A DNA stretch of 64,000 nt, taken from NCBI GenBank assembly GCA_963790205.1, contig CAWBNQ010000008.1, forward strand, positions 96,001-160,000, in the 5' to 3' direction. Numbering within the stretch: position 1 is the stretch's first letter; each line of letters opens with the position of its first letter. Source of the DNA: Nitrospirota bacterium. Its GTDB lineage: Bacteria > Nitrospirota > UBA9217. The position numbers and the translations under genes are program-made. Under the pieces are notes generated by a model. That model made no database searches. It worked only from the letters and a program-made list of their open reading frames with translations, and was not told the origin of the DNA. This document shows, in pieces, positions 12,399 through 31,758 of the stretch.

Positions 12399-12422
12399 TG
12401 GCGGGAGAGCATGAGAATCGAA
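12399..12422. repeat. att core (displaced copy of tRNA-Sec 3' end)
   Basis: Identical to 25701-25724. Confidence 0.95.
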
Positions 12423-12443
12423 ATAATCTCAGCCTATGATTTA

Positions 12444-13616
12444 TCACGTCTTTTTTGCCGTTACGGGGAGAACGCGGGGAGAGGTTCTTCGAGCCAGTAC
12501 GTCCCGCAGATATTCCGTTCGGCTGTGCGTGTAGCGTGCCGTAGAACGCGCATCAGCGTGCCTCATGAGCGCTTGGGCTGCCACACCTTCCGCGACCTCT
12601 GAAATCTGCGTACAGAAAGAATGGCGACCGCCCTCGTAATGGGTACAGGGCAACTTCGTATATTTTTTCCAGTAATGGCCGAGCCGTTGAACTGTGTAAT
12701 GACTCTTGCTTGTCGGATTGATGAAAACCCAATCCTCGGGAAACCGGCCAGCTGACCTCGATCGTGCAATTTCCAGGGCCACGTCAGACAAAGGGACCGT
12801 CTTTTTGTGAGCTTCCTTGTCAGCTTCCCTGAGCCTCCGCATGGTGAACGTCCGCTGCACTCTCATGGTCCGACTCTGGAAGTCTATATCTTTAATCTTG
12901 AGTGCGCACGTTTCCCCTGGTCGGATGCCTGTCTCGAATTCAAACTTATAAACGTCTCGGTGGATCTCCGGTATTTTTTTAAGGGCTGCCGCCTGATCTT
13001 CGAGTGTGAGCGCTATACGCGGCTCCGAATCGTTGCCATTGATGGTAGGGAAGGGGGGCACTTCTGATATAAGGCCCTTCTTCCACATCCATTTCATAGC
13101 GGCGTGCAGAGTGTTTAAGATTTCCCGTTTCGTTTTGAGCTTGATCGTGTTTGGCAACTCATCTTTGAAATTCTCAATATCCGAGAACCTGATTTCCTTA
13201 ACGTCCAGGTGCCCGAGAATAGGGGATAGGTGAGTTTTGGTTCTTGATTGATAAGCGTGGAGGGTACCGTAGGAGAGTTCGCCGCTTTTTACTTCTTCTT
13301 TTTTCTGATCTAGCCAGCGTTCTAGCACAGCGGATAGCTGCCGAGCCTTAATGCTCTCAGGCTGCCAGCTGGCAGGGTCAAAACGCTTCTTCTCTTTGGT
13401 GATGGATTCGTTTATTTCTTTTAGAAGGGAAAATGCTTGGAGGAAACCGAGCTTTGCATCTGGGTTCTTGCTGTCGCGGTAATACTTGAACTTCCGTCTA
13501 TTGTGATACAGCTCAACATAGCACCATGCTTGGTCGCACTTCGGACAGGTCCCGGTGATGTCGGACATGGCAGTACCACACCGCCTGCACCTTATCGCGC
13601 CCTTGAAGTTCTTCAT
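12444..13616 (-). CDS. Tyrosine integrase with N-terminal zinc ribbon
   Basis: GIRPGE, GGRHSF, MRHAD and TARY catalytic motifs; N-terminal CRRC...CPKC; ATG 13616 has a purine-rich RBS (ORF track extends to 13721). Confidence 0.9.
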   Translation of the reverse strand: MKNFKGAIRCRRCGTAMSDITGTCPKCDQAWCYVELYHNRRKFKYYRDSKNPDAKLGFLQAFSLLKEINESITKEKKRFDPASWQPESIKARQLSAVLERWLDQKKEEVKSGELSYGTLHAYQSRTKTHLSPILGHLDVKEIRFSDIENFKDELPNTIKLKTKREILNTLHAAMKWMWKKGLISEVPPFPTINGNDSEPRIALTLEDQAAALKKIPEIHRDVYKFEFETGIRPGETCALKIKDIDFQSRTMRVQRTFTMRRLREADKEAHKKTVPLSDVALEIARSRSAGRFPEDWVFINPTSKSHYTVQRLGHYWKKYTKLPCTHYEGGRHSFCTQISEVAEGVAAQALMRHADARSTARYTHSRTEYLRDVLARRTSPRVLPVTAKKT

Positions 13617-13812
13617 CGCCACCCCCAAGATCGTAGAGGGTGCGATTTTATTCTGATTCACCGCCAAAGTCAAGCTGCCGTCCTCGACGGTAGACACTAC
13701 CAAATTATTACCCAAAGGCAAAAATCAGATGCGGCAGATCACGGACTTACCGGGGCCTGACCCCAGGGCTGAATGGGTAATAAAAAATCATTTCTCAATA
13801 ACGGAAAGGAGA

Positions 13813-14163
13813 ATGAAGATGGAAAAGGCGATTTACGAAGTTGTCTGTCTGAACAGTGAAAGAGAGCGGTATTCGATATTCCCGGTTATAGTAGAGCATC
13901 CGAGGGCAGAGGATGTCATAGCGGAGGCCAACAGAACATTGGGAGCCAGGCTGTTTGCAAAAGTTGACATACAGAATAAGATCAAGGAGTCTCTCCGACG
14001 GCTTGCCGGCACTGTCAAGAGCATCTCGTGCTGCCTCCTGAAGCGAATCAATAGTAATGAGCAGGCCCATAACATCTGTATCTGCCGAGAAGTGGCCGCC
14101 TTCATGAAGAGCATTCACGCTTATGATGGTATCGCCTTCTTTGTACTGGCCCGATTCTGCTGA
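13813..14163 (+). CDS. Hypothetical protein
   Basis: ORF with AAGGAG RBS; no recognised motif. Confidence 0.5.
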   Translation: MKMEKAIYEVVCLNSERERYSIFPVIVEHPRAEDVIAEANRTLGARLFAKVDIQNKIKESLRRLAGTVKSISCCLLKRINSNEQAHNICICREVAAFMKSIHAYDGIAFFVLARFC

Positions 14164-14260
14164 TCGTGGAGAGCAACCGCATCGTATGGCCGCCTGTGTA
14201 GAATTGAAATCAACAATGTATTCAAAGGGAAAGCGCTCTTCTCGCATCTCTTTTTTTTTC
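14148..14260 (-). pseudogene. Degenerate terminase small subunit N-terminal fragment
   Basis: ERFPFEYIVDFNSTQAAIRCGCSPRSAE resembles the TerS consensus RFxxEYLxDLNATQAAIRAGYSxxTA. Confidence 0.6.
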
Positions 14261-14467
14261 GTCCTGGCCTTATCCCCCCCCGCCTTCCCCATGGATATAT
14301 GCCCTTCTTACGCGCCAGTGCCGGGAACCGCATCACCCGACTTGGTGGAACCTGGGATTCGGTGCGATTCAGAGTATAGGGCCTGTGTGAAATGAAGTAG
14401 CGGCCAGGGTAGTCAGATCCCCAGAAAAAGGCCGGGATGAAAATTCAATAAAGCCGACTTTTTTCTC

Positions 14468-14496
14468 TTGACACAAAGATTTCATTGTGATAAATT
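14468..14496 (+). promoter_or_regulatory. Sigma70-like promoter of the replication/packaging operon
   Basis: TTGACA-N17-TAAATT. Confidence 0.6.
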
Positions 14497-14575
14497 TTAT
14501 TCAATGACCATTGAGCGGTTTTTTCGCTCGCGCATGAAAAACTAAATACTCACCAGCGGCACTCTGAACAAACAG

Positions 14576-14618
14576 ACCCGCTCTTTATCGCAATTACTGC
14601 GATGGGAGCGGGTTTTTT
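14576..14618 (+). terminator. Leader terminator/attenuator
   Basis: ACCCGCTC...GAGCGGGT stem with inner ATCGCA/TGCGAT stem and a T run. Confidence 0.75.
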
Positions 14619-15019
14619 ATTGGTCTTTTGCAGTTCGACTTACTGAGCCCTCGAACGCGAGTTCATGGCAATGATCGGATCGCGCGGTCCGGCGTTGACG
14701 ATGAACACCAAGTTCCGAGAGCTTGGCAGTCGAGGCAGCACTTCAGGCTTCTTCGTTTCAGTGAATACTCCGCGAATCGGGAAATTCGCGGAATCACTGG
14801 ACGGCAGGTTGTTCACCATCGACCCCGGCCCGCGGGATACTCGGCTGATGAACGACATGCGGCGGATGAATCCGCGAGAAGACATGCGTTGGAAACCCGT
14901 GAAGTTTGCGGCACCGATAGGGTTTTGCGGCCGTTAAAACGTGGCCCGTGAGCCGCGGACGGCCGAAGTTGCACCGCATTATTGAAAAAAAAAGAAATTA
15001 CGAAAAAAAAGGAGATTCC

Positions 15020-15382
15020 ATGAAAAAGCTTCCCGAAGTCAAAAATATCTTTTCCGATCCTAAGCCGGAAATTCTGGAAATCAGCCACATCGCGTCTTTA
15101 CCCGCATCCGTTTCAACCATTCCGATCGACAATCTCGAAATGTCCGCATACTTGTGTGCGACCACCCCCTTTGATCCCACGCTTGAAATGGCAGGCAGCC
15201 GCGTCGCGTTCCACTTTCCGAATTGCCCCGAAGTTCAAACTGCCATAATGCTATTTTTGGGCAATGCTGCATGCCCAATTCAGGGCTACTTGAACCATTT
15301 CAAGTTCCTGAGGCGGCGTCTTTTTGAGGCCAAGGGCGGCGGACTGTCAACGCCTTCAAGATCAGCAGCGCCCAGGGGTTAA
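15020..15382 (+). CDS. Small phage/satellite protein (DUF5659-like)
   Basis: DNLEMSAYL...RVAFHFP...FKFLRRRL pattern recalled from the family; AGGAG RBS; precedes the primase. Confidence 0.5.
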   Translation: MKKLPEVKNIFSDPKPEILEISHIASLPASVSTIPIDNLEMSAYLCATTPFDPTLEMAGSRVAFHFPNCPEVQTAIMLFLGNAACPIQGYLNHFKFLRRRLFEAKGGGLSTPSRSAAPRG

Positions 15383-15394
15383 GGGGGGGCCGCC

Positions 15395-15901
15395 ATGACG
15401 ACTATCCTCGACAAGCCGGACATTCTCCCGGTCATCGAACAATACACGTCTCTCCGAAAAGTCGGGAAGAATTACTCGGGCCTTTGCCCTTTTCACGACG
15501 AGAGAACTCCGAGCTTTATCGTGGACACGAACCGGCAGCGTTTTAAGTGCTTCGGTTGCGGTGAGTCCGGGGATGTTCTCGACTTTGTGCAAAAGATTCA
15601 TGGTGCAGACTTCAAGGGATCTCTTTCGATTCTCGGCATTGCAAGTGGCCGGAAAAATCGTCCGGACCCAGTGCAAGTCCGCAAACGTGATCTTGAACGG
15701 GCTTTCAGGCTTTGGGAGCGCGAATACTTCGCCAAGGTTTCTGCAGAATACCGACTACTGAACAAGGCGCTTGATGCGTTGAACCCCGAGAGCGCGGACG
15801 AGCTCTTGAAGCGCCGAACTATCCTTGAATACCACCTGGATATTCTCTCAGGGTGTGACGAGGACAAAGTTGAGTTATACCGGGCGGTGCGCCATGGATA
15901 A
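15395..15901 (+). CDS. CHC2 zinc-finger (DnaG N-terminal-like) primase protein
   Basis: GLCPFHDERTPSF...FKCFGCGESGDVLDFV. Confidence 0.9.
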   Translation: MTTILDKPDILPVIEQYTSLRKVGKNYSGLCPFHDERTPSFIVDTNRQRFKCFGCGESGDVLDFVQKIHGADFKGSLSILGIASGRKNRPDPVQVRKRDLERAFRLWEREYFAKVSAEYRLLNKALDALNPESADELLKRRTILEYHLDILSGCDEDKVELYRAVRHG

Positions 15902-17627
15902 AAAATATGACGTGGGCACGGCATTACTTGAGATAGAAAAACCAGAGAATCTCGAAACGATAACATCGGATGTCCGCGGCCAAATTCTTACTGTCTTGAC
16001 GAACGCTAACATTAAGGGCTCTGCCAGAAGCCGGAAAGTGGCAGAGATTGCGCTATCGGCCCTGTTGAAAGTCGGGCGCCTGTATTATCATGCCGAACTA
16101 CGGGACTTTCACTCGGCCATGCTCTTCGACCTGCACGCGAAACGCCTCTTACGAATACGCTCTGATGCTTTCGGTTCCTGGCTCTCTGAGTGGCTTGGCA
16201 TCAATCGCGCCGACACATTATATAAATTTGTATTCGCAGAGATCGAAACCGCTGCACTTTCAGACAACCACTCCACGCCGATCCTTCCAGAAGCCTATTG
16301 GGCGAGCCGTCCTGATGCAGTTTATCTTTCCAATGGTGATGGACATGCCATCAAAATCACGGCCGATGGCGTTCAACTCGTGGACAACGGCACAGACGGC
16401 GTTTTGTTTCCTGCAGGACATACACTTGCTCCGTGGAAACTTACTGAACCCCGCGATGCTTTTGAAGTCTGCCGCCTTTTTCGAGAAGCCCATTGCAGTG
16501 ATACGCACGGTATGGATTTATTACGGCTCTGGCTTTACAGCCTGCCAAGTAATCCGCGAAGTAAGCCTCCGCTATGTCTACCTGGAAACGTCGGATCTGG
16601 TAAAACGCGGACCGCGAAAGGCTTCGCTGAATTATTCGGAATTCCTTTTGTCGCACACAAGGTTGAGGAATATAAGGAGGACGACTTCTGGCCGGCTTGC
16701 AACGTGGGCGGACTGCTCGTGCTCGACAATGCAGACACCCGGTGTCGATGGCTAGCGGACGCACTCGCAAACGCAGCAACGGACGGATGCTCTCAGCAGC
16801 GCAAAAAATACACCAATTCTGAAATTGTAACTCTCCGCCCCCGCGCATGGTTGGCAGTTACCACAGCGAACCCAACTTTCGCGGCTGACTCCGGCCTCGC
16901 TGATCGCTTAATCGTTGCTCGCATGGAGCGCCGGGATGGCGAAGACACCGGCGATGCGGAACTCGGAGCGGAAATATCAGCAGCCCGAGACGCAGGGCTT
17001 TCTCATATAGCGCAGACTTTAAGCACTGCACTTGCCGATAAGGCACCCGTGCCTGGGGGTTTGAATCGACGACATCCTGATTTCGCCGAGTTTGCTGTGC
17101 GGATTGGGCGCGCGCTGGGCCGCGAGCGCGAAACCATAGCCGCCCTCAAAAATGCCGAGCAGGACAAGTCGGCATTCTGCCTGGAGAATGATTCCATTGC
17201 AACGGCGCTCATGGCATACCTTGAGCAAGTCGAGATGTTTACAGGGATGGCCTCTGAGCTTTGCTCTAGGCTCATTGAAACCGACGCGGAACTTTCTGGG
17301 CATCTAAGCCCAAAGCGGCTCTCGAAACGGCTTTCTGCCCTTTGGCCGCACCTACAGGCTATCCTAAAAACTGCCAAGCGTGAGCAGGATCGCAAGCGTT
17401 TCGTAATATTCACACTCGAAAAGAGGGATTCTGCCGAGTTTGCCGATATTGAAAGGCCAATTCCTATAAAGTCCCTATATGATTCTCCCGCGAGAGTTTT
17501 AGAGAAACAGCCTTTCAATATCGGCAAACTCGGCAAGTCTGAAAAATGTTCCACCTGTGGGCGGGTTTCGGCCTGCATGATGGTGGACGGGATGCGGGAT
17601 CTTTGCGGCGGACCTTTTCCCGAATAG
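15894..17627 (+). CDS. P-loop NTPase, putative replicative helicase
   Basis: GNVGSGKT Walker A, LLVLDN Walker B, RKKYTN and LADR; overlaps the primase gene. Confidence 0.8.
   Translation: MDKKYDVGTALLEIEKPENLETITSDVRGQILTVLTNANIKGSARSRKVAEIALSALLKVGRLYYHAELRDFHSAMLFDLHAKRLLRIRSDAFGSWLSEWLGINRADTLYKFVFAEIETAALSDNHSTPILPEAYWASRPDAVYLSNGDGHAIKITADGVQLVDNGTDGVLFPAGHTLAPWKLTEPRDAFEVCRLFREAHCSDTHGMDLLRLWLYSLPSNPRSKPPLCLPGNVGSGKTRTAKGFAELFGIPFVAHKVEEYKEDDFWPACNVGGLLVLDNADTRCRWLADALANAATDGCSQQRKKYTNSEIVTLRPRAWLAVTTANPTFAADSGLADRLIVARMERRDGEDTGDAELGAEISAARDAGLSHIAQTLSTALADKAPVPGGLNRRHPDFAEFAVRIGRALGRERETIAALKNAEQDKSAFCLENDSIATALMAYLEQVEMFTGMASELCSRLIETDAELSGHLSPKRLSKRLSALWPHLQAILKTAKREQDRKRFVIFTLEKRDSAEFADIERPIPIKSLYDSPARVLEKQPFNIGKLGKSEKCSTCGRVSACMMVDGMRDLCGGPFPE
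17432..17535. repeat. Perfect 26 bp inverted repeat, candidate replication origin
   Basis: TGCCGAGTTTGCCGATATTGAAAGGC (17432-17457) and its exact reverse complement (17510-17535), 52 bp spacer. Confidence 0.85.
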
Positions 17628-17685
17628 GCGGGGATGATCTGAGATGAGGCAGTACCAAAATACGGAACACGGAAAGGAGAAAATC

Positions 17686-17937
17686 ATGGGAACACGATCG
17701 GCTTTACCAGCAGAGGATGTAGCAACGCTCAGGGCACGGCGGGACGAGAACACCCGGAAGATTACGGACCTTCGGGCTTCCCTGGGCACCGCGCAGACTA
17801 AGTTTTTGCGGATCGACCAAGAACTTAAAGATCACTCGGCGGCATTCAAGGTCGAAAAGGCAAGGCTCATGGATGAGATCGCAGATTTGAAATCCCAGGT
17901 CGTGGCGCTCGGGCAGCAGTTGGGACAGGATTTTTAG
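17686..17937 (+). CDS. Coiled-coil hypothetical protein
   Basis: AAGGAG RBS; heptad-like helical composition. Confidence 0.6.
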   Translation: MGTRSALPAEDVATLRARRDENTRKITDLRASLGTAQTKFLRIDQELKDHSAAFKVEKARLMDEIADLKSQVVALGQQLGQDF

Positions 17938-17963
17938 GAAACAAGGCAGGTAGAGAGGGCGAC

Positions 17964-18236
17964 ATGGATAAGAACAAACGCAAGAGATCAACCAAGCTTT
18001 CCGAAAGGGAGAGGCGGTTCGTTCAACTGGTCGCCGAAGGCCGCCATTGCCTCTCCCGCTGCTTACTGATGTCCGGATATTCCCGAACCACGGCCATAAG
18101 CCAGGCCGCCCGCATCAGACGGAGGCCCCGAGTGCAAAAGGCAATCATTGAGGAGCGGATCAAGCGCGGTTTATTCTGCTCCAATGAAGAGCTTGCGCTC
18201 GTCGGGAAAAGTAGTGATGGTCGCGGTAGCAATTGA
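17964..18236 (+). CDS. Terminase small subunit-like HTH protein
   Basis: LSERERRFV...SGYSRTTAISQAARIRRRPRVQKAI matches the TerS N-terminal pattern. Confidence 0.65.
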   Translation: MDKNKRKRSTKLSERERRFVQLVAEGRHCLSRCLLMSGYSRTTAISQAARIRRRPRVQKAIIEERIKRGLFCSNEELALVGKSSDGRGSN

Positions 18237-18447
18237 GATCGGGTGGGTCGGGATTGACAAGGAGAAAACCGGTATAAAATTCCCCATACATAAATTTCGA
18301 CGTGAGAGGGAAAACATTGAAAGCACAGATACATTCAACGTTTTTCATGAAATTATGTGGAATAGGTGTCCGGTCGAATCCGAACTGAGAAAAGTCATGA
18401 AACTTTTGTCGAAAAAGTCGAGAATTTTTCGGCTGAAAATTTGTTGA
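18217..18447 (+). CDS. Hypothetical protein
   Basis: Short ORF overlapping the terS-like gene. Confidence 0.3.
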   Translation: MVAVAIEIGWVGIDKEKTGIKFPIHKFRRERENIESTDTFNVFHEIMWNRCPVESELRKVMKLLSKKSRIFRLKIC

Positions 18448-18486
18448 CCTCTTCCTAGGGAAACCTAGGGTTTGGAAACATCCTGA

Positions 18487-18582
18487 CCGGACACACCGGA
18501 CCTCCGGAACCGGCAGGGCAAGCAGTACACCGGACACCCGTTTAACGGCCCGGTGGGCGGATACTCGCTGTTAGCGACCCGC
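18487..18582 (+). promoter_or_regulatory. Three tandem CGG-AYAC-hairpin-CCG structured motifs in the 5' leader of the scaffold-like gene
   Basis: Copies at 18487-18513, 18531-18552 and 18558-18581; inner stems differ in sequence but all pair. Confidence 0.6.
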
Positions 18583-18598
18583 AAAAAAGGAGAGAGTC

Positions 18599-19591
18599 AT
18601 GACTACAGTAATGTCTCACGAAGTGACCACGCCGACAAGTGTGAAGGCGAGTGCTGATCAGGCACGGGCAATGATGGCCGAGATGGTGAAGGCCGACCTT
18701 GATGCTGGGTCGGTCATGGTCGTTCAGCATGAGGGTGCCCCAACGATACTGGCACCGGCAGCACCACAACCCACGATGACCCCGCCGTCGGCACCGGCTG
18801 GTCCTGATGGCGGTGCAGCAAGGATCGCTCAGCTCGAAGCGGCACTCGGCCAGTTGCAAGGCATTCTAAGTGACGAGAGCCGTGACACGTGGCGCCAGAA
18901 GTATCGCACTATTGACGGCATCCTGAAAAAGCGAAAAACAGAGGATCTCGCTAAAATCGCCGAGTTGGAGGTTGAGGTCAGAACTCTCCAGGGTGAGCTT
19001 GCACGGCATGAGCGCGGCGGCAGCGTCGAACTCGATGAACCTGTAGATTTGGATGCCGAGGATCAGCGGCTTGTTGACCGGCTCGGAGTCGCCCCGGAAG
19101 ACTACGCCTTAATGAAGCGAAAAATGACTGGTCAACCCTCCCGCGCCGACAAAGCGCAGGATGTTGCCAAGCAGAGCTATCTTTCAACCTTGAACGTTCT
19201 GGCTCCCGGCTGGCAGGATACGAAGGATGATCCGATGTTCAGCGACTACCTGAACGGGTTTCAAGATAACGCAAGCGGCCGAACGCTCCTGGAGGTCTTG
19301 CGCCAGGCCGACGCCGACGCCGATTCCGTGATGGTCGCAAAGGTTTACAATGAATTTTTTTCCCTGAGCAAAACCTCCCGTGGGAAGCTGGCCCGCACTC
19401 TTGAACCCAACAGCGGCTCTCGCGGCGGCAGACAGATCAGAGACAATACCAAGCCACTCCTTTCCCAGGCTGATTACCTCGCCTTTAGCCACAGTATCAC
19501 GCAGGGCACCTTCAAGGGTACTCCCGCGGAGGCTGAGAACATGCGGAAAATGTATACGGAGGCCATCGCAGAGGGTCGCCTGGTTAATTAG
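18599..19591 (+). CDS. Putative capsid scaffolding protein (podovirus-like)
   Basis: Disordered Pro/Ala N-terminus, coiled coil (WRQKYRTIDG), PGWQDTKDDPMFSDYLN, C-terminal AIAEGRLV. Confidence 0.6.
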   Translation: MTTVMSHEVTTPTSVKASADQARAMMAEMVKADLDAGSVMVVQHEGAPTILAPAAPQPTMTPPSAPAGPDGGAARIAQLEAALGQLQGILSDESRDTWRQKYRTIDGILKKRKTEDLAKIAELEVEVRTLQGELARHERGGSVELDEPVDLDAEDQRLVDRLGVAPEDYALMKRKMTGQPSRADKAQDVAKQSYLSTLNVLAPGWQDTKDDPMFSDYLNGFQDNASGRTLLEVLRQADADADSVMVAKVYNEFFSLSKTSRGKLARTLEPNSGSRGGRQIRDNTKPLLSQADYLAFSHSITQGTFKGTPAEAENMRKMYTEAIAEGRLVN

Positions 19592-19609
19592 CCCCATTCA
19601 ACAAATTAT

Positions 19610-19636
19610 CCCGAGGCTCACAGCCTCGGGCTTTTT
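19610..19636 (+). terminator. Rho-independent terminator after the scaffold-like gene
   Basis: CCCGAGGCT/AGCCTCGGG stem followed by CTTTTT. Confidence 0.75.
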
Positions 19637-19647
19637 CGAGGTGACGC

Positions 19648-20019
19648 ATGGGAAAGCGCATGCAGAAGGATGTCCAGAGCATTGTATTTGGAGTAGCTGA
19701 TACGCTCAAGTCCAGCCAGGGGTTCAACGAAAACGGATTCATTGAGCTCATAGTGCTCAAGGTGCCGAGTTTCACGAATGGCGTCACCGTCACCAAGCTG
19801 GAAATCCTTGACGACGACGGCGACGTAATCTGGACCCTCAGTACCGGCTGGGCTCAGAACGCGACGTTCCAGATCACCTCGGTAGACACGCTGGGCGTCC
19901 CGGTGAATACTCCGCGGAGCAACAATTATTACCAGGTGCGCGTCACGCTTTCCGGAGCACCCGGCGGGACCGGAGGGACAGTGACCGTCAAGAGCTATAT
20001 CAAGGCCAACAGCGTTTAA
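19648..20019 (+). CDS. Beta-rich hypothetical protein, possible capsid decoration protein
   Basis: Alternating Thr/Val/Gly beta-strand pattern; GAGGTG RBS; position in the head module. Confidence 0.45.
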   Translation: MGKRMQKDVQSIVFGVADTLKSSQGFNENGFIELIVLKVPSFTNGVTVTKLEILDDDGDVIWTLSTGWAQNATFQITSVDTLGVPVNTPRSNNYYQVRVTLSGAPGGTGGTVTVKSYIKANSV

Positions 20020-20045
20020 CAGCCGCACAGCGGCGGAAAGGATGC

Positions 20046-20276
20046 ATGGACATGGCACAGCAAAGACTTTTGTTACAGCGCAGCACGGGCAGGATCTACG
20101 TTTGGAACGAGCCGTTTTCCAAACAGGAAGACATGATGGAGTATAACGGTCCGGTCCCTGAAGGTGGCCGTATCTCGCCAGATGAACTGAAAAAGATCAT
20201 CGCTGAGTCAAAAAGTGATTTTAGAGCCATTTCCACCGATGGCCAGGAAAAATATTTCGGGCGCATGGTCTGTTAA
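20046..20276 (+). CDS. Small phage-like hypothetical protein
   Basis: ORF in the operon; STGRIYVW...DMMEY motif. Confidence 0.5.
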   Translation: MDMAQQRLLLQRSTGRIYVWNEPFSKQEDMMEYNGPVPEGGRISPDELKKIIAESKSDFRAISTDGQEKYFGRMVC

Positions 20277-20307
20277 TTTTGATATTTCATCTCTATGGGG
20301 TGATGCA

Positions 20308-20820
20308 ATGAAGACCTTCGGATTAGCGGTCAGGGAGTATCAGATAGGGGTCTTGCGCCGGGCACAAGATGACCTTGCAAAACCAAAGGCTAGCGGGTTC
20401 AACCTACCGGCGGATGTAGCCATTGAACTGGATGAGATCGTTGGCAGGATTTCTATGATCATCAAACGCATGGAGGACCAGCCGGAGCTTGAGGGCACAG
20501 CTCCAGGCTACCCGACTTCAATCCAGGGCGTTCTCGACGATGCACGAGCAAAACTTATGCGAGCAGTAACGGAGCATAACTTTAATATCGCCAAGGACTA
20601 CGCGCTGTGCATCGAGAGCGCCATGCAGAGTGTTTCTATGGCCGCAACAACTTGCGGGTGCCCTACTGATTGTTTTGACGACGCAGCAGCATTTGCGCAC
20701 CGTGCGCACGGCGTCAGCACTCAACCAGAGTTTGGAGATTTAATGCTCAGTGCAGTTGACTCGTTTAATTCAGGCTTAAAAGCCTTGGATGCTTGTTCCC
20801 ATAGAGCCGAAGAGTCCTAA
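20308..20820 (+). CDS. Hypothetical protein
   Basis: ORF with GGGGTG RBS; helical; no recognised family. Confidence 0.5.
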   Translation: MKTFGLAVREYQIGVLRRAQDDLAKPKASGFNLPADVAIELDEIVGRISMIIKRMEDQPELEGTAPGYPTSIQGVLDDARAKLMRAVTEHNFNIAKDYALCIESAMQSVSMAATTCGCPTDCFDDAAAFAHRAHGVSTQPEFGDLMLSAVDSFNSGLKALDACSHRAEES

Positions 20821-20886
20821 GCCTTCGGTGCGACGTTAACTTGACAGAGTAAGGGCGATGATCATGCCCGAAAAGGAGGGAGAAAA

Positions 20887-22242
20887 ATGGCAGAACCGAT
20901 GGAAGATCTCGACAAGGTGAAATACCCCGCAGGGATTAAAAACACCAACTTAGCGAAGGGTATGGTGGATCTCGGCGATACGCTGGGTCATACCGCACGG
21001 GCCGGCCTGCGGGCGCTCCCCGATGTCGGCGGCATGGCACTCAATACAGCGGCTGCCGTTGGTGCCGGTGCGGCCAACATGGGAAACGAAGCCCTCGGGA
21101 AGGCCACGGGGTATAAATTCAAACCGCTTGAGTATCAGCCGTATAAAACTGATTACACGGCGCCGGCCTTGGCTGATGCCAAACGCTCGGGCTTGCGTTT
21201 GATGCGACGCATGGGCATGACGCCCGTGCCGGCTGAGAGTGCGGTGCCGTATTCTCAGCCCGGCCACCCGGCGGCACTGCCGTTGCCAAAAACTACTGCA
21301 GTGCCACCGCAGAAGCCTGTCGCACGAGACAGACAGGGCGGGACATTCACCTATAACGGCAAGACCACCGCTGTCCCCAAGTCCACCATGACCGCCGAAG
21401 ATGCCAGTGCTCAGTATGCAAAGAACACAGCCATGCCCGAAGGCTGGGTGTGGGACCCCAAAAGCTATACGGCCATCAACTCCAAGACCGGCGCAACCTT
21501 TGACCCTCGGGGCGGCAAAACCACGCTGCCGAAAAACAGATGGTTTGGCCCCGACGGCAAGCCGATCATGTCGGACATCACCGATGACCAGGGCAATGTC
21601 GTGGGCAGGCGGCCCATGGTGCAGGAAGGGACCGCGGACGAACTCGACGCCCAGGCGCGGCGGGGCGGCAGTGCAATGCCGAGCCTTGATTACAGCAGCC
21701 CCGCAAATCTTTTATCCTCCGCCATGCCTATGGCCATGAATGTCGGACGGGCGAGACAGGAGGCCATTCAGCGACACCTGAATAACGAGGAGCTTCAGAG
21801 AAAGTGGGGCGTCAATTTCGATCTCATAAAAGCCGGCATGGCGCAACAGCTACAGCCTTACCAGGTTGCAAAGATGAAGGCCGAGACCGATAAGGACAAG
21901 GCACTGGCAGAGGCTGTTGGTGCTAAAGGCCAAAAACTTGATACCGAACAGCGCAAGTTTTTGATTGACCAACTTGAATTACACCCCACGCATTTCGGAC
22001 TCCCAAAGCCTAAAGATGCAGATGAGGCCACAAAAGCGGCATATAATAAACAGGTCACTGATTTATACTGGAAGATCATAAATGGCGAGTGGAGCGGCCC
22101 TGGCGGTGGCGGGCGTGCTGAGGTCGAAGCCGCAACGCCTGCAACTCCCTCTGGGCAGATGCCGAAAAAGGGAGAGACTAAAACTCTGAGCGATGGTCAG
22201 ACAAAGATAATCTTTAAGGACGGGAAGTGGCAGAGGGCATAA
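20887..22242 (+). CDS. Putative internal virion / DNA ejection (pilot) protein
   Basis: Ala/Gly/Pro/Met-rich low-complexity 451 aa protein; Gly-rich N-terminal helices; C-terminal GETKTLSDGQTKIIFKDGKW; AGGAGG RBS. Confidence 0.45.
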   Translation: MAEPMEDLDKVKYPAGIKNTNLAKGMVDLGDTLGHTARAGLRALPDVGGMALNTAAAVGAGAANMGNEALGKATGYKFKPLEYQPYKTDYTAPALADAKRSGLRLMRRMGMTPVPAESAVPYSQPGHPAALPLPKTTAVPPQKPVARDRQGGTFTYNGKTTAVPKSTMTAEDASAQYAKNTAMPEGWVWDPKSYTAINSKTGATFDPRGGKTTLPKNRWFGPDGKPIMSDITDDQGNVVGRRPMVQEGTADELDAQARRGGSAMPSLDYSSPANLLSSAMPMAMNVGRARQEAIQRHLNNEELQRKWGVNFDLIKAGMAQQLQPYQVAKMKAETDKDKALAEAVGAKGQKLDTEQRKFLIDQLELHPTHFGLPKPKDADEATKAAYNKQVTDLYWKIINGEWSGPGGGGRAEVEAATPATPSGQMPKKGETKTLSDGQTKIIFKDGKWQRA

Positions 22243-22431
22243 ACCTCCGTCACCTCAGTAGGACCGTAATCGTTTCGGTCATACGTGCGGACAGAAAGGC
22301 TGTAAGTATTTGAATTTCAAAAGGCGGATATCCCCCACTGGATTCCAAATCCAACGGGGTCGAGGAGGTAGTGTCTCAGTTTGAATTATTTCACCGTTGA
22401 ACCTGGGGCCGGACTATGCTATTATCTGGTC

Positions 22432-23244
22432 ATGCCAAAAGGACCGCAAGGACAGAAGAGGCCCGCTGATGTTATCGGGGCCGCAATAAAGATCGCTCGG
22501 ATCGCGGACGTTTCGATCAACACGGTGACGAAGCTGCTTGTAGACGCCGGGGAAGCGTCTGCGGCCTATCATAACGAGCATGTGAAGGGGCTACAGGTCA
22601 AGCGCGTCCAGGCCGATGAGATATGGAGTTTCGTTTATTCCAAGGACAAGAACGTACCGAAAGACAAAGAGGGCGAGTTCGGCTATGGCGACGTATGGAC
22701 CTTTACAGCGATTGATGCTGATTCAAAATTAATAATATCCTGGCATGTCGGCAGTAGGGACTTGGAAAACGCCACGATGTTTATGCATGACGTAGCATCA
22801 AGGCTTGCTAACCGCGTCCAGCTTACCACAGACGGGCATAAGATGTACTTGGACGCTGTTGAGAGTGCTTTCGGTTCTGAGGTTGATTTTGCACAGCTTG
22901 TGAAGATATACAGGAGTGTGTCGAGTAAAGAAACGCGGTATAGTCCGGCTAAATACGTTGGCGCAGAGAAAACCAAGATCACCGGGAACCCCGATAAGAG
23001 GGACGTATCTACATCACACGTTGAACGGCAGAACCTTAACATGCGCATGGGTATGCGCCGATTTACCCGGCTGACGAACGCTTTCTCAAAGAAACTGGAA
23101 AACCACTACCATGCGCTTTCGCTCTATTTCATGTTTTATAACTTTGTCAGGATTCACAAAACGCTTAGTGTAACTCCGGCTATGTCAGCGGGGTTAACCG
23201 ATCATCTTTGGACCATGGAGGATATTGTTGATTTAATCCGATAA
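22432..23244 (+). CDS. IS1-family DDE transposase with chimeric N-terminus
   Basis: [22 protein letters not shown] and [25 protein letters not shown]. Confidence 0.85.
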
Positions 23245-23432
23245 AAAATCAAATCACATTTGACTGTTTTTTATAATTAGTTGAAATTGCTTATTATTTG
23301 GAAGGTGTGCCAGCACTTTTTTTCTTGCAAAACGTACTTTCTACCTGTTATACTGCGTTCACTCACCTGAGCCCGTTCGTCTCGTCTATCCCGTTTAACG
23401 CTATTTATGCTATTATAGAAGAAAGAGAAGAG

Positions 23433-23792
23433 ATGTTACAACAACATACTTTTGCCGAGAAAAATATGATTTGCACAATGGGTTCAGAAGTAATGGGAGT
23501 GCAAAACAGAATATTACATATTGATATTCCGCTATATGTTCATGCATTGCTCAAGTATTTACAAAGTGCCAAGCAGATTGTCGGCATATCGAGAGTTGCC
23601 TATCTTGTAAGTGGGAATACAATATTTATTCGCACATACTTCAACGGTCCAAATAGAGAAATTTCAGATAAGATTTATGAACTAGAAATGGAACTAATGG
23701 ATCATTTCAGAGATACTTTGAGATTTGATTTCGTCCTTGTCTTCGACCCAGAAGAAACAAATCCCTCCGGATTTAGCGCTGAATATTTTTAA
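23433..23792 (+). CDS. Hypothetical protein, possible degenerate MNT-like partner of the HEPN protein
   Basis: AT-rich IS passenger directly upstream of the HEPN-like gene; KIYELEMEL...FDF. Confidence 0.5.
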   Translation: MLQQHTFAEKNMICTMGSEVMGVQNRILHIDIPLYVHALLKYLQSAKQIVGISRVAYLVSGNTIFIRTYFNGPNREISDKIYELEMELMDHFRDTLRFDFVLVFDPEETNPSGFSAEYF

Positions 23793-23798
23793 CAAATA

Positions 23799-24158
23799 AT
23801 GTCAAATGAGAAAGCACATCTCGCCAAAGCTGTAAGGAACGAGGAGTTCTATGAGAACGTGCTTGAACTTAACAGTGATTGGGCAGTAGTGGGCTTATTT
23901 TATTCAGCCGTCCACTATATAGAGGCTTACTTGGCAAAACGTCTGTCTATACATAGCGATAACCATGAAGACAGAAAAAACTATGTAAACCAATTTTCAA
24001 ATTTGAAACCTATCTATAAAGAGTACAGCGAGTTACAGAATCTTAGTTGGGGTATACGATATAGCAGTTTAAATCCAACTAGAGATAAGGCATTAGAGAT
24101 TAAACGTGATGTTTACGACCCCATAAAAACCCACATGGAAAAACTCTTAAAACAGTAG
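23799..24158 (+). CDS. HEPN-domain-like protein
   Basis: HLAKAVRN, WAVVGLFYSAVHYIEAYL, H..R and IRY helical-bundle motifs. Confidence 0.7.
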   Translation: MSNEKAHLAKAVRNEEFYENVLELNSDWAVVGLFYSAVHYIEAYLAKRLSIHSDNHEDRKNYVNQFSNLKPIYKEYSELQNLSWGIRYSSLNPTRDKALEIKRDVYDPIKTHMEKLLKQ

Positions 24159-24306
24159 TGCCTTTGCCTTGGTTTTCTCCCTTCCTCGGATATAACTCAA
24201 CCAATTCCACTTTATTGGTTAATTATTATCCAATATCTTACTTTATTTCAAACTGAGACACTACCAATAATTTGTATGGTTCTATTACCCATTGCCAGAA
24301 CTCCCC

Positions 24307-24939
24307 CTATAGGCCGAACTGCAACCGAGCCACAGCGTCGATCTTCTTTTCGTCAGATGTATGACAGTAAACCTCCGTAGTACGTATGTGCGCGTGGCCC
24401 AGGAGCTCCTGCACGGTCCTGAGATCCACGCCCTTGTCCAGGAGAGACGTTGCAAAGGTGTGGCGCGTCGTGTGCGGTGTGATCCGCTTCGTGAGCAGCG
24501 CGCCCTTCTTCACCCGCCTCATAAGGCAATCAACGGCCTTGGGCGTGAGCGGCGCCGGCTGGGTGTTCCCGCGCTCACCCAGGGTGAAGAAGAGTGGCCG
24601 GGCCGCGGGCTCGGTTGACTTTGGCGGGCGATGACGGAAATCGGCGTTCTTCAGCGACTTCTGGTAATCAAGGACCGCCTCCATGACCTTACCCGTGAGG
24701 GCAACGCGGCGCTGCTTCTGTCCCTTGCCGATCACGTCGACAACGGTCTGATTCCGATACGTGGTCAGGTTCTCGATGCAGAGGCTGCACACCTCGGCCT
24801 TTCTGAGGCCCGAGGAGAGCATAAGGAGTAAGAGGGCATAGTCACGTCTGCCTTTGAGGGTCCGCCGATCCGGGACCCGGAGGAGAGCTTTTACTTCATC
24901 CGCGGCCAAAAACTCTGAGGGTCTTTTTATCGTACCCAT
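24307..24939 (-). CDS. XerC-like tyrosine recombinase (catalytic domain only)
   Basis: SGLRKAEV, GKGQKQR, HTTRHTFAT and LLGHAHIRTTEVY: complete R-K-H-R-H-Y set. Confidence 0.92.
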   Translation of the reverse strand: MGTIKRPSEFLAADEVKALLRVPDRRTLKGRRDYALLLLMLSSGLRKAEVCSLCIENLTTYRNQTVVDVIGKGQKQRRVALTGKVMEAVLDYQKSLKNADFRHRPPKSTEPAARPLFFTLGERGNTQPAPLTPKAVDCLMRRVKKGALLTKRITPHTTRHTFATSLLDKGVDLRTVQELLGHAHIRTTEVYCHTSDEKKIDAVARLQFGL

Positions 24940-25004
24940 TGTTCTACCTCGTTTTCTTTTTCATTGTTATGGCTATAACTCACAACTAGTGCTCAGCCCC
25001 AATC

Positions 25005-25328
25005 TTATGCGGCTTTAACTTTTTGCTTTTTTCTGCATTGGCATTTCGACATCCTTAAAGCGTATAAACCTTCAAAGGCGAGGCCTTCTCCCATATCAAT
25101 ACCGGCCGCATAGGCTTCCAGAGCAGAGAGTGTGCCGATACGACGTGCAAAGTCTTCCTGCATGGGAAGTGTAGTATTAGAAATTTTCCTGAGGCGAACT
25201 TGTGCGCATTTCCTTGGATTATTCAACCCCCATTCCTCGTTATAGCGATTGAAACGGGCGCGGATTAGCTTGTGAATCCGGGCAGCAAATAGAAGGTCAT
25301 TCTTTGTAATTTCCTTTTTCGTTTTCAT
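25005..25328 (-). CDS. Hypothetical protein
   Basis: AAGGAGG RBS; between the Phd-like gene and the recombinase. Confidence 0.6.
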   Translation of the reverse strand: MKTKKEITKNDLLFAARIHKLIRARFNRYNEEWGLNNPRKCAQVRLRKISNTTLPMQEDFARRIGTLSALEAYAAGIDMGEGLAFEGLYALRMSKCQCRKKQKVKAA

Positions 25329-25341
25329 CGGTAATCCTCCT

Positions 25342-25518
25342 TTATTTTTTTTTTGGCTTCACGATCTCAAATTCTTCTTCATTCACCGGACTGATGACTA
25401 CTGCAGGTTGACCGTTCACAGTAACCACGACCTGCCGCCCGGTTCGCTTCACCTCGGCCACAATCGCCGTTGCCTTGGCCTTAAATTCCGTTATGGTCAC
25501 AAACTTGATGGGGCTCAT
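25342..25518 (-). CDS. Phd/YefM-family antitoxin / DNA-binding protein
   Basis: VTITEFKAKATAIV...VVVTVNGQPAVVI; AGGAGG RBS. Confidence 0.85.
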   Translation of the reverse strand: MSPIKFVTITEFKAKATAIVAEVKRTGRQVVVTVNGQPAVVISPVNEEEFEIVKPKKK

Positions 25519-25557
25519 TCGCTCACCTCCTTTTATAAGGACTTCTTTTTCATGCTG

Positions 25558-25595
25558 ATAGTCTGTATTATAGTCTTTAAACAGACTATTGTCAA
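25558..25595 (-). promoter_or_regulatory. Consensus sigma70 promoter with overlapping palindromic operator
   Basis: TTGACA (25595-25590), 17 bp spacer, TATAAT (25572-25567); ATAGTCTGT/ACAGACTAT inverted repeat. Confidence 0.85.
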
Positions 25596-25700
25596 GTAAA
25601 GAAAAAGCCCGGCTGTATGACCGGGCTTGCGCTGCGGGGAGACTGCGGGGAGAATCAGAAGTCATTCCCCGATGTAACTCATTGAAATTCTAAAAAAGAA

Positions 25701-25799
25701 TGGCGGGAGAGCATGAGAATCGAACTCACCTCACCGTGCTCACGCACGGCGACAGCGGCTTTGAAGGCCGGGACGGGCACCAGCTCCGTAACCTCTCCC
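25701..25799 (-). tRNA. selC: tRNA-Sec (anticodon UCA)
   Basis: Reverse complement reads GGGAGAG...CTTCAAA...long variable arm...TTCGATT...CTCTCCCGCCA; selA and selB are nearby. Confidence 0.93.
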
Positions 25800-29632: not shown

Positions 29633-31396
29633 ATGTATAATGAAAGCGTTACCAATACAAAGGACCTGAAGAAGCGGCTCACCTGGCTCGTGAACCTCAG
29701 ATGGGGCGGCATCCTCGGGGTCCTGATCGCCACGTCTGTTGCGCGGGAGACATCCTTTCTGTCCATCTCCTTCATCCCGGTGGGCCTCATCCTCGGCGTC
29801 GCTGCCTTTGGTAACCTGTTCTACCAGTGGAGGCTGAAACACTCCCGGGAAAATCTAGAGCGTCTGGCGCGCGTTCAGATCCTCGGCGACCAGTTCATCC
29901 TGGTCTCTTCGGTCTATTTCTCAGGCGGGTGTGACAGCCCCTTCATTTACTTTTTTATTTTTCATGTAGTCATCAGCGGAATCATCCTCCCGCGGCGACA
30001 GGCGTACGGCATCGCCGGTATGGCCGTGCTCCTCCCCGCACTCGTCATCGAGCTCAAGCACGCTGGAATACTCCCTCATTACGGGATCTTCAGGCAGGAG
30101 CCCGTGTTTACCGGCACGGCGATGATCGTCTCCTATGGGCTCGCCTTTATCGCCACCATTTTTCTGACCGCCTACTTCGTGACGCACCTGAGCCGGCAGC
30201 TCTATAAAAAGAACGAGGAAGTAACGCAGCTCTACAGCCTGTCGGAGCGGGTCCGGTCGTCTATCCGCTTCAAGGACGTTATCGGGGTCATTGAGCGGGA
30301 ACTGCGGGAGTTTACGGGCGCACGGTCGAGCGTCTACATACCGCTCGACAAGGAGAGAAGGACCCTGTCAATGAAGATCGGGGACAGGGAACTGCACATC
30401 CCGCTTATCGACAAAAACAGTTTTACCGACGCAGTGCTCCGCGGTGCAGCGCTCATCCTGGACCGTCGCTCTGTCACGTCGGAGTACGACGTCAAGGCTC
30501 TTGAGCTTATGGGCGCAGAACGGTGCCTGGTGCTGCCGCTGACATCGGCAACGCATCAACCGTGTCATGGGTACTTTCACTGCAAGGACAGCCAATGCGC
30601 GGCCTATGAAAATAAGGAGGGGAAATGCTGGCAGTTCTCGGGAACGCACTGCAAGGGGGCGATCTACGGGATCAACGCGGACAAAATCGCCGCCTGCCTC
30701 GCCTGCGAACTTTTTACACCCGTGGGGGCCTTCCTCCTGGACATCTCAAAGGAGAGCGTGCCGCTCCCGGACCTGGATACGGAAGCGGCCATGAGGCTTC
30801 TCGATGCGGCGAGCCTCGCTGTATCGAATGCCCTCCTGCACGAAAAGACCGTGCAGCTTTCGAAGACGGACGGCCTCACCGGCCTTAAAAACTACCGTGA
30901 GTTCAAGGAAGCTATTCAGGCCGAACTATTGCGCTCGAAACGTTACCAGAGGGCTTCCAGCCTCTTGATGATCGATGTCGACCATTTCAAGCGCTATAAT
31001 GACGCGTACGGACATCCCCGGGGAGACGTGCTTCTTAAGAATATGGCCGAGCTTATTCAAAACAATTTTAAAGATACGGACATTGTTGCGAGGTACGGGG
31101 GAGAGGAATTCGCGGTCCTCCTCGTAGAGACAGGGGCCAAGGACCAGGCTGTTGCCGTGGCGGAGCGGCTCAGGGCCATGGTGGAAGGGCATAAATTTTC
31201 GTACGAAGAAACGCAGCCGGGAGGCAGCTTCACGATCAGCATCGGGGTCAGCTGCTATCCCGAGGACGGACTGGCAGCGGATGAGCTCATTCAGGCGGCT
31301 GATGAAGCCTTGTACCGGGCCAAGAATGAAGGCAGGAACAGGGTAGTTGCTGCGGGTCGTTCTTCGGGGCAGAAGGTATCCACACCGCGGATATAA
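29633..31396 (+). CDS. Membrane diguanylate cyclase with GAF-like and Cys-rich insert
   Basis: N-terminal TM helices; DGLTGLKN, DVDHFK and RYGGEEF. Confidence 0.92.
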   Translation: MYNESVTNTKDLKKRLTWLVNLRWGGILGVLIATSVARETSFLSISFIPVGLILGVAAFGNLFYQWRLKHSRENLERLARVQILGDQFILVSSVYFSGGCDSPFIYFFIFHVVISGIILPRRQAYGIAGMAVLLPALVIELKHAGILPHYGIFRQEPVFTGTAMIVSYGLAFIATIFLTAYFVTHLSRQLYKKNEEVTQLYSLSERVRSSIRFKDVIGVIERELREFTGARSSVYIPLDKERRTLSMKIGDRELHIPLIDKNSFTDAVLRGAALILDRRSVTSEYDVKALELMGAERCLVLPLTSATHQPCHGYFHCKDSQCAAYENKEGKCWQFSGTHCKGAIYGINADKIAACLACELFTPVGAFLLDISKESVPLPDLDTEAAMRLLDAASLAVSNALLHEKTVQLSKTDGLTGLKNYREFKEAIQAELLRSKRYQRASSLLMIDVDHFKRYNDAYGHPRGDVLLKNMAELIQNNFKDTDIVARYGGEEFAVLLVETGAKDQAVAVAERLRAMVEGHKFSYEETQPGGSFTISIGVSCYPEDGLAADELIQAADEALYRAKNEGRNRVVAAGRSSGQKVSTPRI

Positions 31397-31702
31397 GAAA
31401 AAGTAGAAGTAAGAAGTAAGAAATTAGGAAATAGGAAATCGGTTTTCGCCTTGACCCCGCGCCGATGTTCAAGATACTTGTCTTTTTCTGCACCGCCGAC
31501 TCACAGCTCCGCGCAGACATGCCAGATTACCTTTTACTTTTCTTGTTGATACAGCAGTCCATGAGCGCTTACGCTAACGCACGCGCATGCATGATTTGTG
31601 GTTTACTGGGCTCTCTACCGGGCATGTAAAGCGCGTCCCTGTTCGCGGGATGCAGGGGCCTCTGGAAAGGCAAAAATCCAACGCCAAAGCCAAACTCATT
31701 TT

Positions 31703-31744
31703 TTACTTCTTACTTCTTACTTCTTACTTCTTACTTCTTACTTC
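31703..31744. repeat. Heptamer tandem repeat (TTACTTC)x6
   Basis: Read directly; degenerate inverse AAGTAAG units near 31400-31420. Confidence 0.9.
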
Positions 31745-31758
31745 AAATTTCTCTTTAC

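Follow-up and report, generated by a model that had tools for sequence, protein, structure and literature searches.

A site-specific island of phage-satellite size and plan at selC of a Nitrospirota bacterium carries an intact head scaffold gene

Organization of the island at selC

We analyzed a 64,000-nucleotide stretch of DNA from a Nitrospirota bacterium (genome G000; GenBank assembly GCA_963790205.1, contig CAWBNQ010000008.1, positions 96,001 to 160,000), referred to here as the window, the numbering of which is used throughout. The window contains a 13.3-kb element that lies between two 24-bp attachment (att) copies at the gene for tRNA-Sec (selC). This element is a site-specific island with the size and plan of a phage-inducible chromosomal island (PICI), and it carries an intact scaffold gene of the helper-phage type. 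The scaffold gene is accompanied by a short cassette of head-operon character, an integrase, replication-type genes, and a TerS-like gene (Table 1). An earlier reading of the sequence (the original prediction) described the open reading frames (ORFs) as intact, each with a ribosome-binding site (RBS); they are open, and most of them are preceded by an RBS-like motif, as judged by eye.

The att duplication described in that prediction is borne out. The direct repeat is exact over 24 bp (12399-12422 and 25701-25724) and 91% alike over 33 nt, and it corresponds to the 3′ end of tRNA-Sec. A cytochrome gene, tRNA-Sec, and a Kef-type transporter gene are contiguous in the relative G012, which therefore shows the empty site. 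Genome G016 harbors a different element of 11.3 kb at the same selC site, with an integrase that is 77% identical. The source genome G000 has a second tRNA-Sec gene (C1:656899-656993). Among the contigs of run X1 (depth 2-4), short stretches identical to the element and to the host flank were present, but no junction indicating excision or a circle. Viral contigs yielded no virome evidence of packaging: alignment A9 had no match there, and alignment A10 matched one distant recombinase.

The scaffold protein and its phage relatives

The 330-aa ORF of the island is a full-length head scaffold, as the original prediction had proposed. It has 193 relatives (E ≤ 0.001) among 1.84 billion representatives, and the 150 that were listed are mostly 270-370 aa long and 23-38% identical. 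Identity to the nearest relatives is 25-34%, with full length and C-terminal motif retained. Among 87 aligned members of the family, 74 match phrog_13678. We read the genomic context in 80 viral loci, retrieved by means of an alignment of capsid proteins encoded by prophages of the phylum, and in 12 earlier loci. A capsid gene lies directly downstream of the scaffold family in 69 of the 73 phage loci with at least 1.2 kb of upstream sequence, a count that includes repeats of one phage; in the island, by contrast, the scaffold gene is not directly upstream of a capsid gene. A profile built from 55 capsid-adjacent ORFs alone matches residues 9-328 of the island protein (E 1e-22). The C-terminal motif, which is present in 35 of these 55 ORFs, is covered by the profile match.

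The AlphaFold2 model of the scaffold (predicted local distance difference test, pLDDT, 81.6) is helical throughout and shows coiled coils and a flexible linker, together with a helix-turn-helix (HTH) at the C terminus that reaches a pLDDT of ∼97. It fits the general description of scaffolds in passages of PMC6893505. Fold matches in BFVD are phage proteins of similar length, and in the Atlas the protein lies near viral clusters (0.96-0.97), the nearest named one being a scaffold family whose name is carried by 13% of its members. The PDB fold search gave no match, and the PDB sequence matches are generic coiled coils. As a single sequence, the scaffold had no match in viral contigs or INPHARED, and alignment A3 had none in metagenomes.

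The phages that carry this scaffold family possess a phrog_267 capsid, a phrog_332/1216 portal, an Hc3 head closure protein, and very large late proteins. We therefore infer that the donor was a podovirus-like phage group, in keeping with the podovirus link drawn in the original prediction. Four prophages of family f18 (L038, L039, L041, and L042) encode shortened scaffolds of 200-235 aa that match at the C terminus only.

The head cassette

The order of the cassette is scaffold gene, hairpin, 123-aa gene, and post-capsid gene. The 76-aa ORF at its end belongs to a small-gene family that comprises 47 ORFs when iterated from this ORF; the profile of the family built without the query gave E 8e-10. 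Among 66 loci, the small gene follows the capsid gene within 200 nt in 25, within 900 nt in 9 more, and farther away in 2, and it was not found in the remaining 30.

We rejected the hairpin behind the scaffold gene as a leftover capsid-gene terminator, since a hairpin followed by T residues is about as frequent behind the capsid gene (14 of 79 loci) as ahead of it (15 of 80). The labels that the original prediction had given to the 123-aa ORF (decoration) and the 451-aa ORF (DNA ejection) are without sequence or fold support. The 123-aa ORF gave a single-sequence model with a pLDDT of 47 and no BFVD match at E ≤ 0.001. A two-sequence decoration profile did not match it, the protein search returned only the ORF itself, and no phage match was found; the three weak matches in 400 other genomes, none of them phage genes, are not convincing relatives. 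The search with the 451-aa ORF likewise returned only itself, its best Atlas value of 0.81 is a lead at most, and it had no match among 15,832 ORFs from the fetched loci. The sole argument for an ejection role is positional: before the inversion described below, this gene occupied the slot that is taken by a phrog_10969 gene in the G005 element, and the phrog_10969 family lies near giant late proteins in two phage loci.

Profiles for capsid, portal (49 sequences), TerL (20 sequences), adaptor, decoration, and phrog_10969 found nothing in the six frames of the element, searched for remnants by reading through stops, or in G000. Family searches of G000 for capsid, portal, and TerL were also negative, with G297 and G254 as positive controls. 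The lack of capsid, portal, and TerL stated in the original prediction is thereby borne out for the element. Scans of the element for tail, lysis, connector, and holin genes gave no matches.

Table 1. Features of the selC island and their positions in the window
Feature	Position	Strand	Remarks
att copy, tRNA-distal	12399-12422	.	exact 24-bp repeat of the tRNA-Sec 3′ end
Tyrosine integrase	12444-13721	-	phrog_1 E 3e-43; longest ORF 425 aa
Sigma70-like site upstream of integrase	13645-13673	-	consensus match only; untouched by the inversion
Left inversion breakpoint	13681-13709	.	inverted 8-bp target 13681-13688, 13-bp IS-end footprint, inverted 8-bp target 13702-13709
144-aa ORF	13729-14163	+	no family; 5′ DNA common to the G005 element
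TerS-like HTH fragment, ∼30 codons	14121-14292	-	PF03592 E 1e-5; within ORF 13795-14292
Small backbone gene (alignment A7), island-family marker	15020-15382	+	DUF5659 match only, E 0.08
CHC2 zinc-finger protein, primase N-terminal type, 168 aa	15395-15901	+	PF01807 E 2e-29
577-aa P-loop protein	15894-17627	+	P-loop motif; relative in G171
Coiled-coil ORF, 97 aa	17644-17937	+	better RBS at ATG 17686
TerS-like HTH protein, 90 aa	17964-18236	+	42% identical to a gene of the G005 element
Full-length head scaffolding protein, 330 aa	18599-19591	+	C-terminal helix-turn-helix and EGR motif
Terminator-like hairpin	19610-19637	+	3′ of the scaffold gene
123-aa predicted beta-strand protein	19648-20019	+	occupies the slot where a capsid gene would be
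76-aa homolog of the donor phages' small post-capsid gene	20046-20276	+	small-gene family
170-aa protein	20308-20820	+	N-terminal 65 aa common to short backbone genes of the G005, G249, and G032 elements
451-aa Ala/Gly/Pro/Lys-rich orphan	20887-22242	+	pre-inversion place directly upstream of the integrase
IS1-family element	22367-24265	+	22-bp terminal inverted repeats; transposase 22381-23244
Second tyrosine recombinase, Xer-like, 210 aa	24307-24939	-	83-85% identical in the G005 and G249 elements
107-aa ORF	25005-25328	-	no family
Phd/YefM-family protein	25342-25665	-	no adjacent toxin match
tRNA-Sec (selC)	25701-25799	-	its 3′ 24 bp are the other att copy

Backbone genes and the IS1-family inversion

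The predicted integrase is of the tyrosine type, and its true start is probably ATG 13616. The zinc finger of the putative CHC2 primase stands, whereas the name primase fits less firmly, the match of this 168-aa ORF being confined to the zinc finger. Similarly, the predicted helicase has the P-loop motif but no family identity, with no match in Pfam, PHROG, NCBIfam, or PDB. A relative of this 577-aa protein was found in 1 of the 63 genomes of the host's family and weak relatives in two Brevundimonas phages, and viral contigs gave none; we presume that it is the replicative helicase. The 3′ end of its gene contains a perfect 26-bp inverted repeat with arms 52 nt apart (17432-17535), a candidate replication origin. 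The 90-aa TerS-like gene matches phrog_51 weakly (E 2e-7), whereas its PF03592 score of 15 bits lies under the Pfam cut-off of 26.

The IS1-family element, the 8.7-kb inversion, the second recombinase, the Phd-family gene, and the minus-strand TerS-like fragment were absent from the original prediction. The fragment is probably a remnant; one may speculate that it is a pseudogene or a packaging signal that was kept. The Phd/YefM-family protein is likely to be a regulator.

The insertion sequence (IS) of the IS1 family carries two passenger ORFs (23298-23792 and 23799-24158), and a second copy of its transposase was not found in G000. It lacks the usual target duplication: an 8-bp target (A) occurs at 24266(+) and 13702(-), and a different one (B) at 22359(+) and 13681(-), so that the IS with its flanking targets spans 22359-24273 on the right-hand side. 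The IS1-family insertion inverted 8.7 kb without loss of DNA. When the arrangement before the inversion was modelled, the integrase-side junction aligned to G005 with a score of 107 versus a shuffled maximum of 39. The other junction aligned to G249 (score 144) and G005 (score 122), scores that stand without a shuffle comparison. Against G016 and G168, the scores of the modelled junctions were within those of shuffles. Both target duplications are still present, and relatives align at each junction, so there was no loss of DNA next to the IS; an IS-driven loss of structural genes was rejected on the persistence of both target duplications. The reconstructed element before the insertion measures 11.37 kb, with all genes running from the tRNA toward the integrase, in line with the sister elements at selC (11.3, 12.1, and 9.6 kb).

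Related islands in the phylum

Of 401 genomes of the phylum, 22 contain the small backbone gene, which is found at 27 places in all; every one of the 26 non-self places was read. An att duplication lies 5.6-20 kb away in 14 of the 20 loci with a nearby tRNA. Scans of hand-picked ORFs in these sister loci found TerS matches in 8 loci and virion genes in 5 of the 26, namely tape measure genes in G016 and G240, phrog_10969 in G005 and G249, and a protease-capsid fusion in G168. A search of the 63 genomes in the host's family found phrog_10969 in 2, both times inside islands of the backbone family. Elements of the same gene order without a major capsid gene, as envisaged in the original prediction, did not emerge: neither the 26 related loci nor 18 of the 122 second-recombinase loci gave a match to the scaffold, and no second orphan-scaffold element was found there. 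The element is therefore one variant within a wider, apparently undescribed island family.

The islands of G016 and G240 are 11-14 kb long with a tape measure gene of 516-527 aa (at L009:4371-6584 and L200:5606-7998, respectively), the small neighbors of which may be tail assembly chaperones. The selC island of G168 (L196:8312-17880; 9.6 kb) combines TerS with the 767-aa protease-capsid fusion, and no portal or TerL match was found among the ORFs scanned. In G032 (L180:8042-9838), TerS is followed by a 347-aa Ala/Thr/Ser/Gln-rich orphan within a 15.8-kb tRNA-Gly island, a pattern like that of the 451-aa ORF. A metagenome element (L204:1802-12653), which extends beyond the fetched region, encodes Phd, the second recombinase (82%), a primase-helicase, TerS, and TerL.

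Comparison with known satellites

The original prediction held that the element matches neither of the known satellite patterns and may form an undescribed class. This is overstated. According to passages of PMC10085698, the PICI plan comprises integrase, replication genes, TerS, and a capsid-morphogenesis gene, and CpmB of Staphylococcus aureus pathogenicity islands (SaPIs) is described in parts of PMC5644958 as a mimic of the internal scaffold, with a C terminus that attaches where the helper scaffold does. Like PICIs and SaPIs, the island is ∼10-13 kb long and att-bounded, with a tyrosine integrase, replication-type genes, and a TerS-like gene. As in SaPI1, a scaffold-type protein has a helper-like capsid-binding C terminus, and there are no portal, TerL, or tail genes in the element. 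In contrast to SaPI1, where CpmB has 72 aa and needs CpmA, the island encodes a complete 330-aa phage scaffold and a second head-operon gene. It further differs from PICIs in the podovirus-like donor, in the second recombinase and Phd gene beside the tRNA, and in having no AlpA/MerR/Stl match. Of the PICI criteria, it has the integrase and the att-bounded insertion and no portal, connector, tail, or holin genes, and its scaffold falls outside the capsid-like proteins covered by the published PICI profiles. The element would work like a PICI, yet we do not file it as one, because the regulator is missing and three further core features (primase-replicase module, small terminase, and capsid-morphogenesis gene) are equivocal. 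It resembles capsid-forming PICIs (cf-PICIs) as a small island with head genes, but these possess capsid, portal, TerL, and connectors in the account of PMC10085698, none of which is present here. The P4-like markers psu-delta-sid, alpA, epsilon, and alpha had no match in scans of the element's ORFs.

TcaP of the PICI-like elements (PLEs) is reportedly an external scaffold. Unlike TcaP and PLE11, the borrowed parts here are head-operon genes. The island nevertheless resembles PLEs, especially PLE11 with its chimeric tails, where own structural proteins are placed into helper particles (parts of PMC12987554). PLEs use a serine recombinase in the account of PMC9618062, whereas both recombinases of the island are of the tyrosine type. 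The Mycolicibacterium EPIPs are 11-kb satellites with TerS, a tape measure protein, and, in some groups, a scaffolding protein, but they differ in their serine integrase, head-tail adaptor, stopper, annotated major capsid protein, and long-tailed helper (sections of PMC12822802). The tape measure genes of the G016 and G240 islands are similar to the satellite-borne ones of PLE11 and the EPIPs. VEIMEs share integrase, primase/helicase, sometimes TerS, and the lack of a major capsid gene, but the word scaffold does not occur in the main text of PMC9618062, where VEIMEs are thought not to remodel capsids. Satellites with structural genes of their own have thus already been published, as the sections on PLE11 (PMC12987554) and the EPIPs (PMC12822802) describe. 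The literature contains no report that we found of an orphan full-length scaffold in a satellite, although supplements, notably those of PMC10085698 and PMC9618062, may list such genes; nor, supplements aside, of phage satellites in Nitrospirota.

Proposed role of the scaffold and alternative explanations

The reading that we favor, with slightly more belief than doubt, is that of a PICI-like satellite at selC whose captured scaffold redirects the head assembly of a podovirus-like helper. A helper of the phrog_267 capsid group would infect the cell or be induced, and the element would excise and replicate. The element's TerS would recruit the helper TerL onto element DNA. By analogy with SaPI CpmB, the conserved C-terminal helix-turn-helix of the scaffold would bind the helper capsid protein and rival the helper scaffold, and this competition would bias procapsid formation in favor of heads that are smaller or filled with the satellite. 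Loading of the 451-aa protein into these heads, as a putative pilot or ejection protein, might follow, which is the weakest step. The IS1-family insertion would have followed later, inverting 8.7 kb and removing nothing.

Several observations weigh against this scenario. No helper of the phrog_267 group was found in G000, and the regulators AlpA, MerR, and Stl had no match in the element (22 ORFs against Pfam and PHROG, 19 against NCBIfam; ORFs of at least 50 aa). The IS, the inversion, and the TerS fragment are signs of wear, and the sister in G249 has split integrase and phrog_10969 frames, which could reflect decay or sequencing error. The decoration and ejection labels are without support. 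The orphan scaffold was seen once; at 90% clusters it finds only itself, leaving no close homolog for gauging selection, and every full-length relative with readable context sits in a phage head module.

Three other explanations were weighed. A genuine PICI-like island could carry the scaffold cassette as a relic, without current role, of a capsid-forming ancestor or of prophage recombination, the capsid gene having been lost; we regard this as rather unlikely, though it is the most substantial of the three. In phages, the capsid gene lies between the scaffold and the small gene, so that one deletion or replacement would suffice, and the orphan scaffold is a single instance. The protease-capsid fusion of G168 and the TerS and TerL of L204 indicate, moreover, that the island family gains and loses head genes; however, the top-ranking viral relatives of TerL from L204 possess another type of head module, one without a match to this scaffold family. 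A relic is also difficult to reconcile with a scaffold that has kept its full length and C-terminal motif despite 25-34% identity to the nearest relatives, and with an element in which capsid, portal, and TerL remnants were not found. That the island is a decayed full prophage is an explanation that is largely refuted and to which we give very little credence. Its TerS, scaffold, and small gene do mirror the order of a phage head operon, and an IS and a TerS fragment are present, but both IS target duplications are preserved and the two junctions agree with relatives, so that no DNA went missing beside the IS. Backbone, size, and site fit small att-bounded islands and not prophages, and the TerS fragment is the one exception to the absence of matches to tail, lysis, and head genes or their remnants.

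Alternatively, the scaffold might act as an anti-phage decoy that binds the podovirus capsid protein and spoils assembly, while the island rides in normal helper heads via TerS. The capsid-binding end appears intact in sequence and model, most sister islands seem to be without a recognized virion gene in the hand-picked scans, and satellites in general interfere with the assembly of their helpers according to parts of PMC6092414. We consider this improbable, since a decoy should manage without the complete N-terminal and coiled-coil regions, given that CpmB has 72 aa, and the small post-capsid gene has also been retained.

Beyond the redirection of head assembly by a PICI-like satellite, we put forward a wider proposal only tentatively, with the balance of our judgment against it: that the islands constitute a satellite family not yet described, each member of which brings virion parts matched to its helper, but no capsid gene, and builds chimeric particles. 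The parts would be the scaffold here, the putative ejection protein in G005 and G249, and the tape measure protein in G016 and G240. The present element would then be the first satellite whose complete scaffold remodels a podovirus head from within, and its own ejection protein, loaded into that head, could allow entry into cells that exclude the helper.

The known tools by which satellites remodel heads are short mimics, external cages, and capsid homologs. If confirmed, a complete scaffold of the helper type in a satellite would resemble the step of first capture of such tools; a capture of capsid and scaffold genes by horizontal gain is proposed in passages of PMC6893505. With the sister elements, tape measure proteins encoded by satellites, so far reported for PLEs and EPIPs, extend to another phylum, and ejection proteins join them as candidates. 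The interaction of scaffold and capsid protein is open to a test in vitro that does not need a culture of the host.

Additional features

The tRNA-Glu island of G005 contains a 1410-aa cargo ORF (L011:15582-19814) that resembles a defence gene. Outside the selC element, at 31395-31755 of the window, 7-bp tandem repeats form inverted arms that are 295 nt apart.

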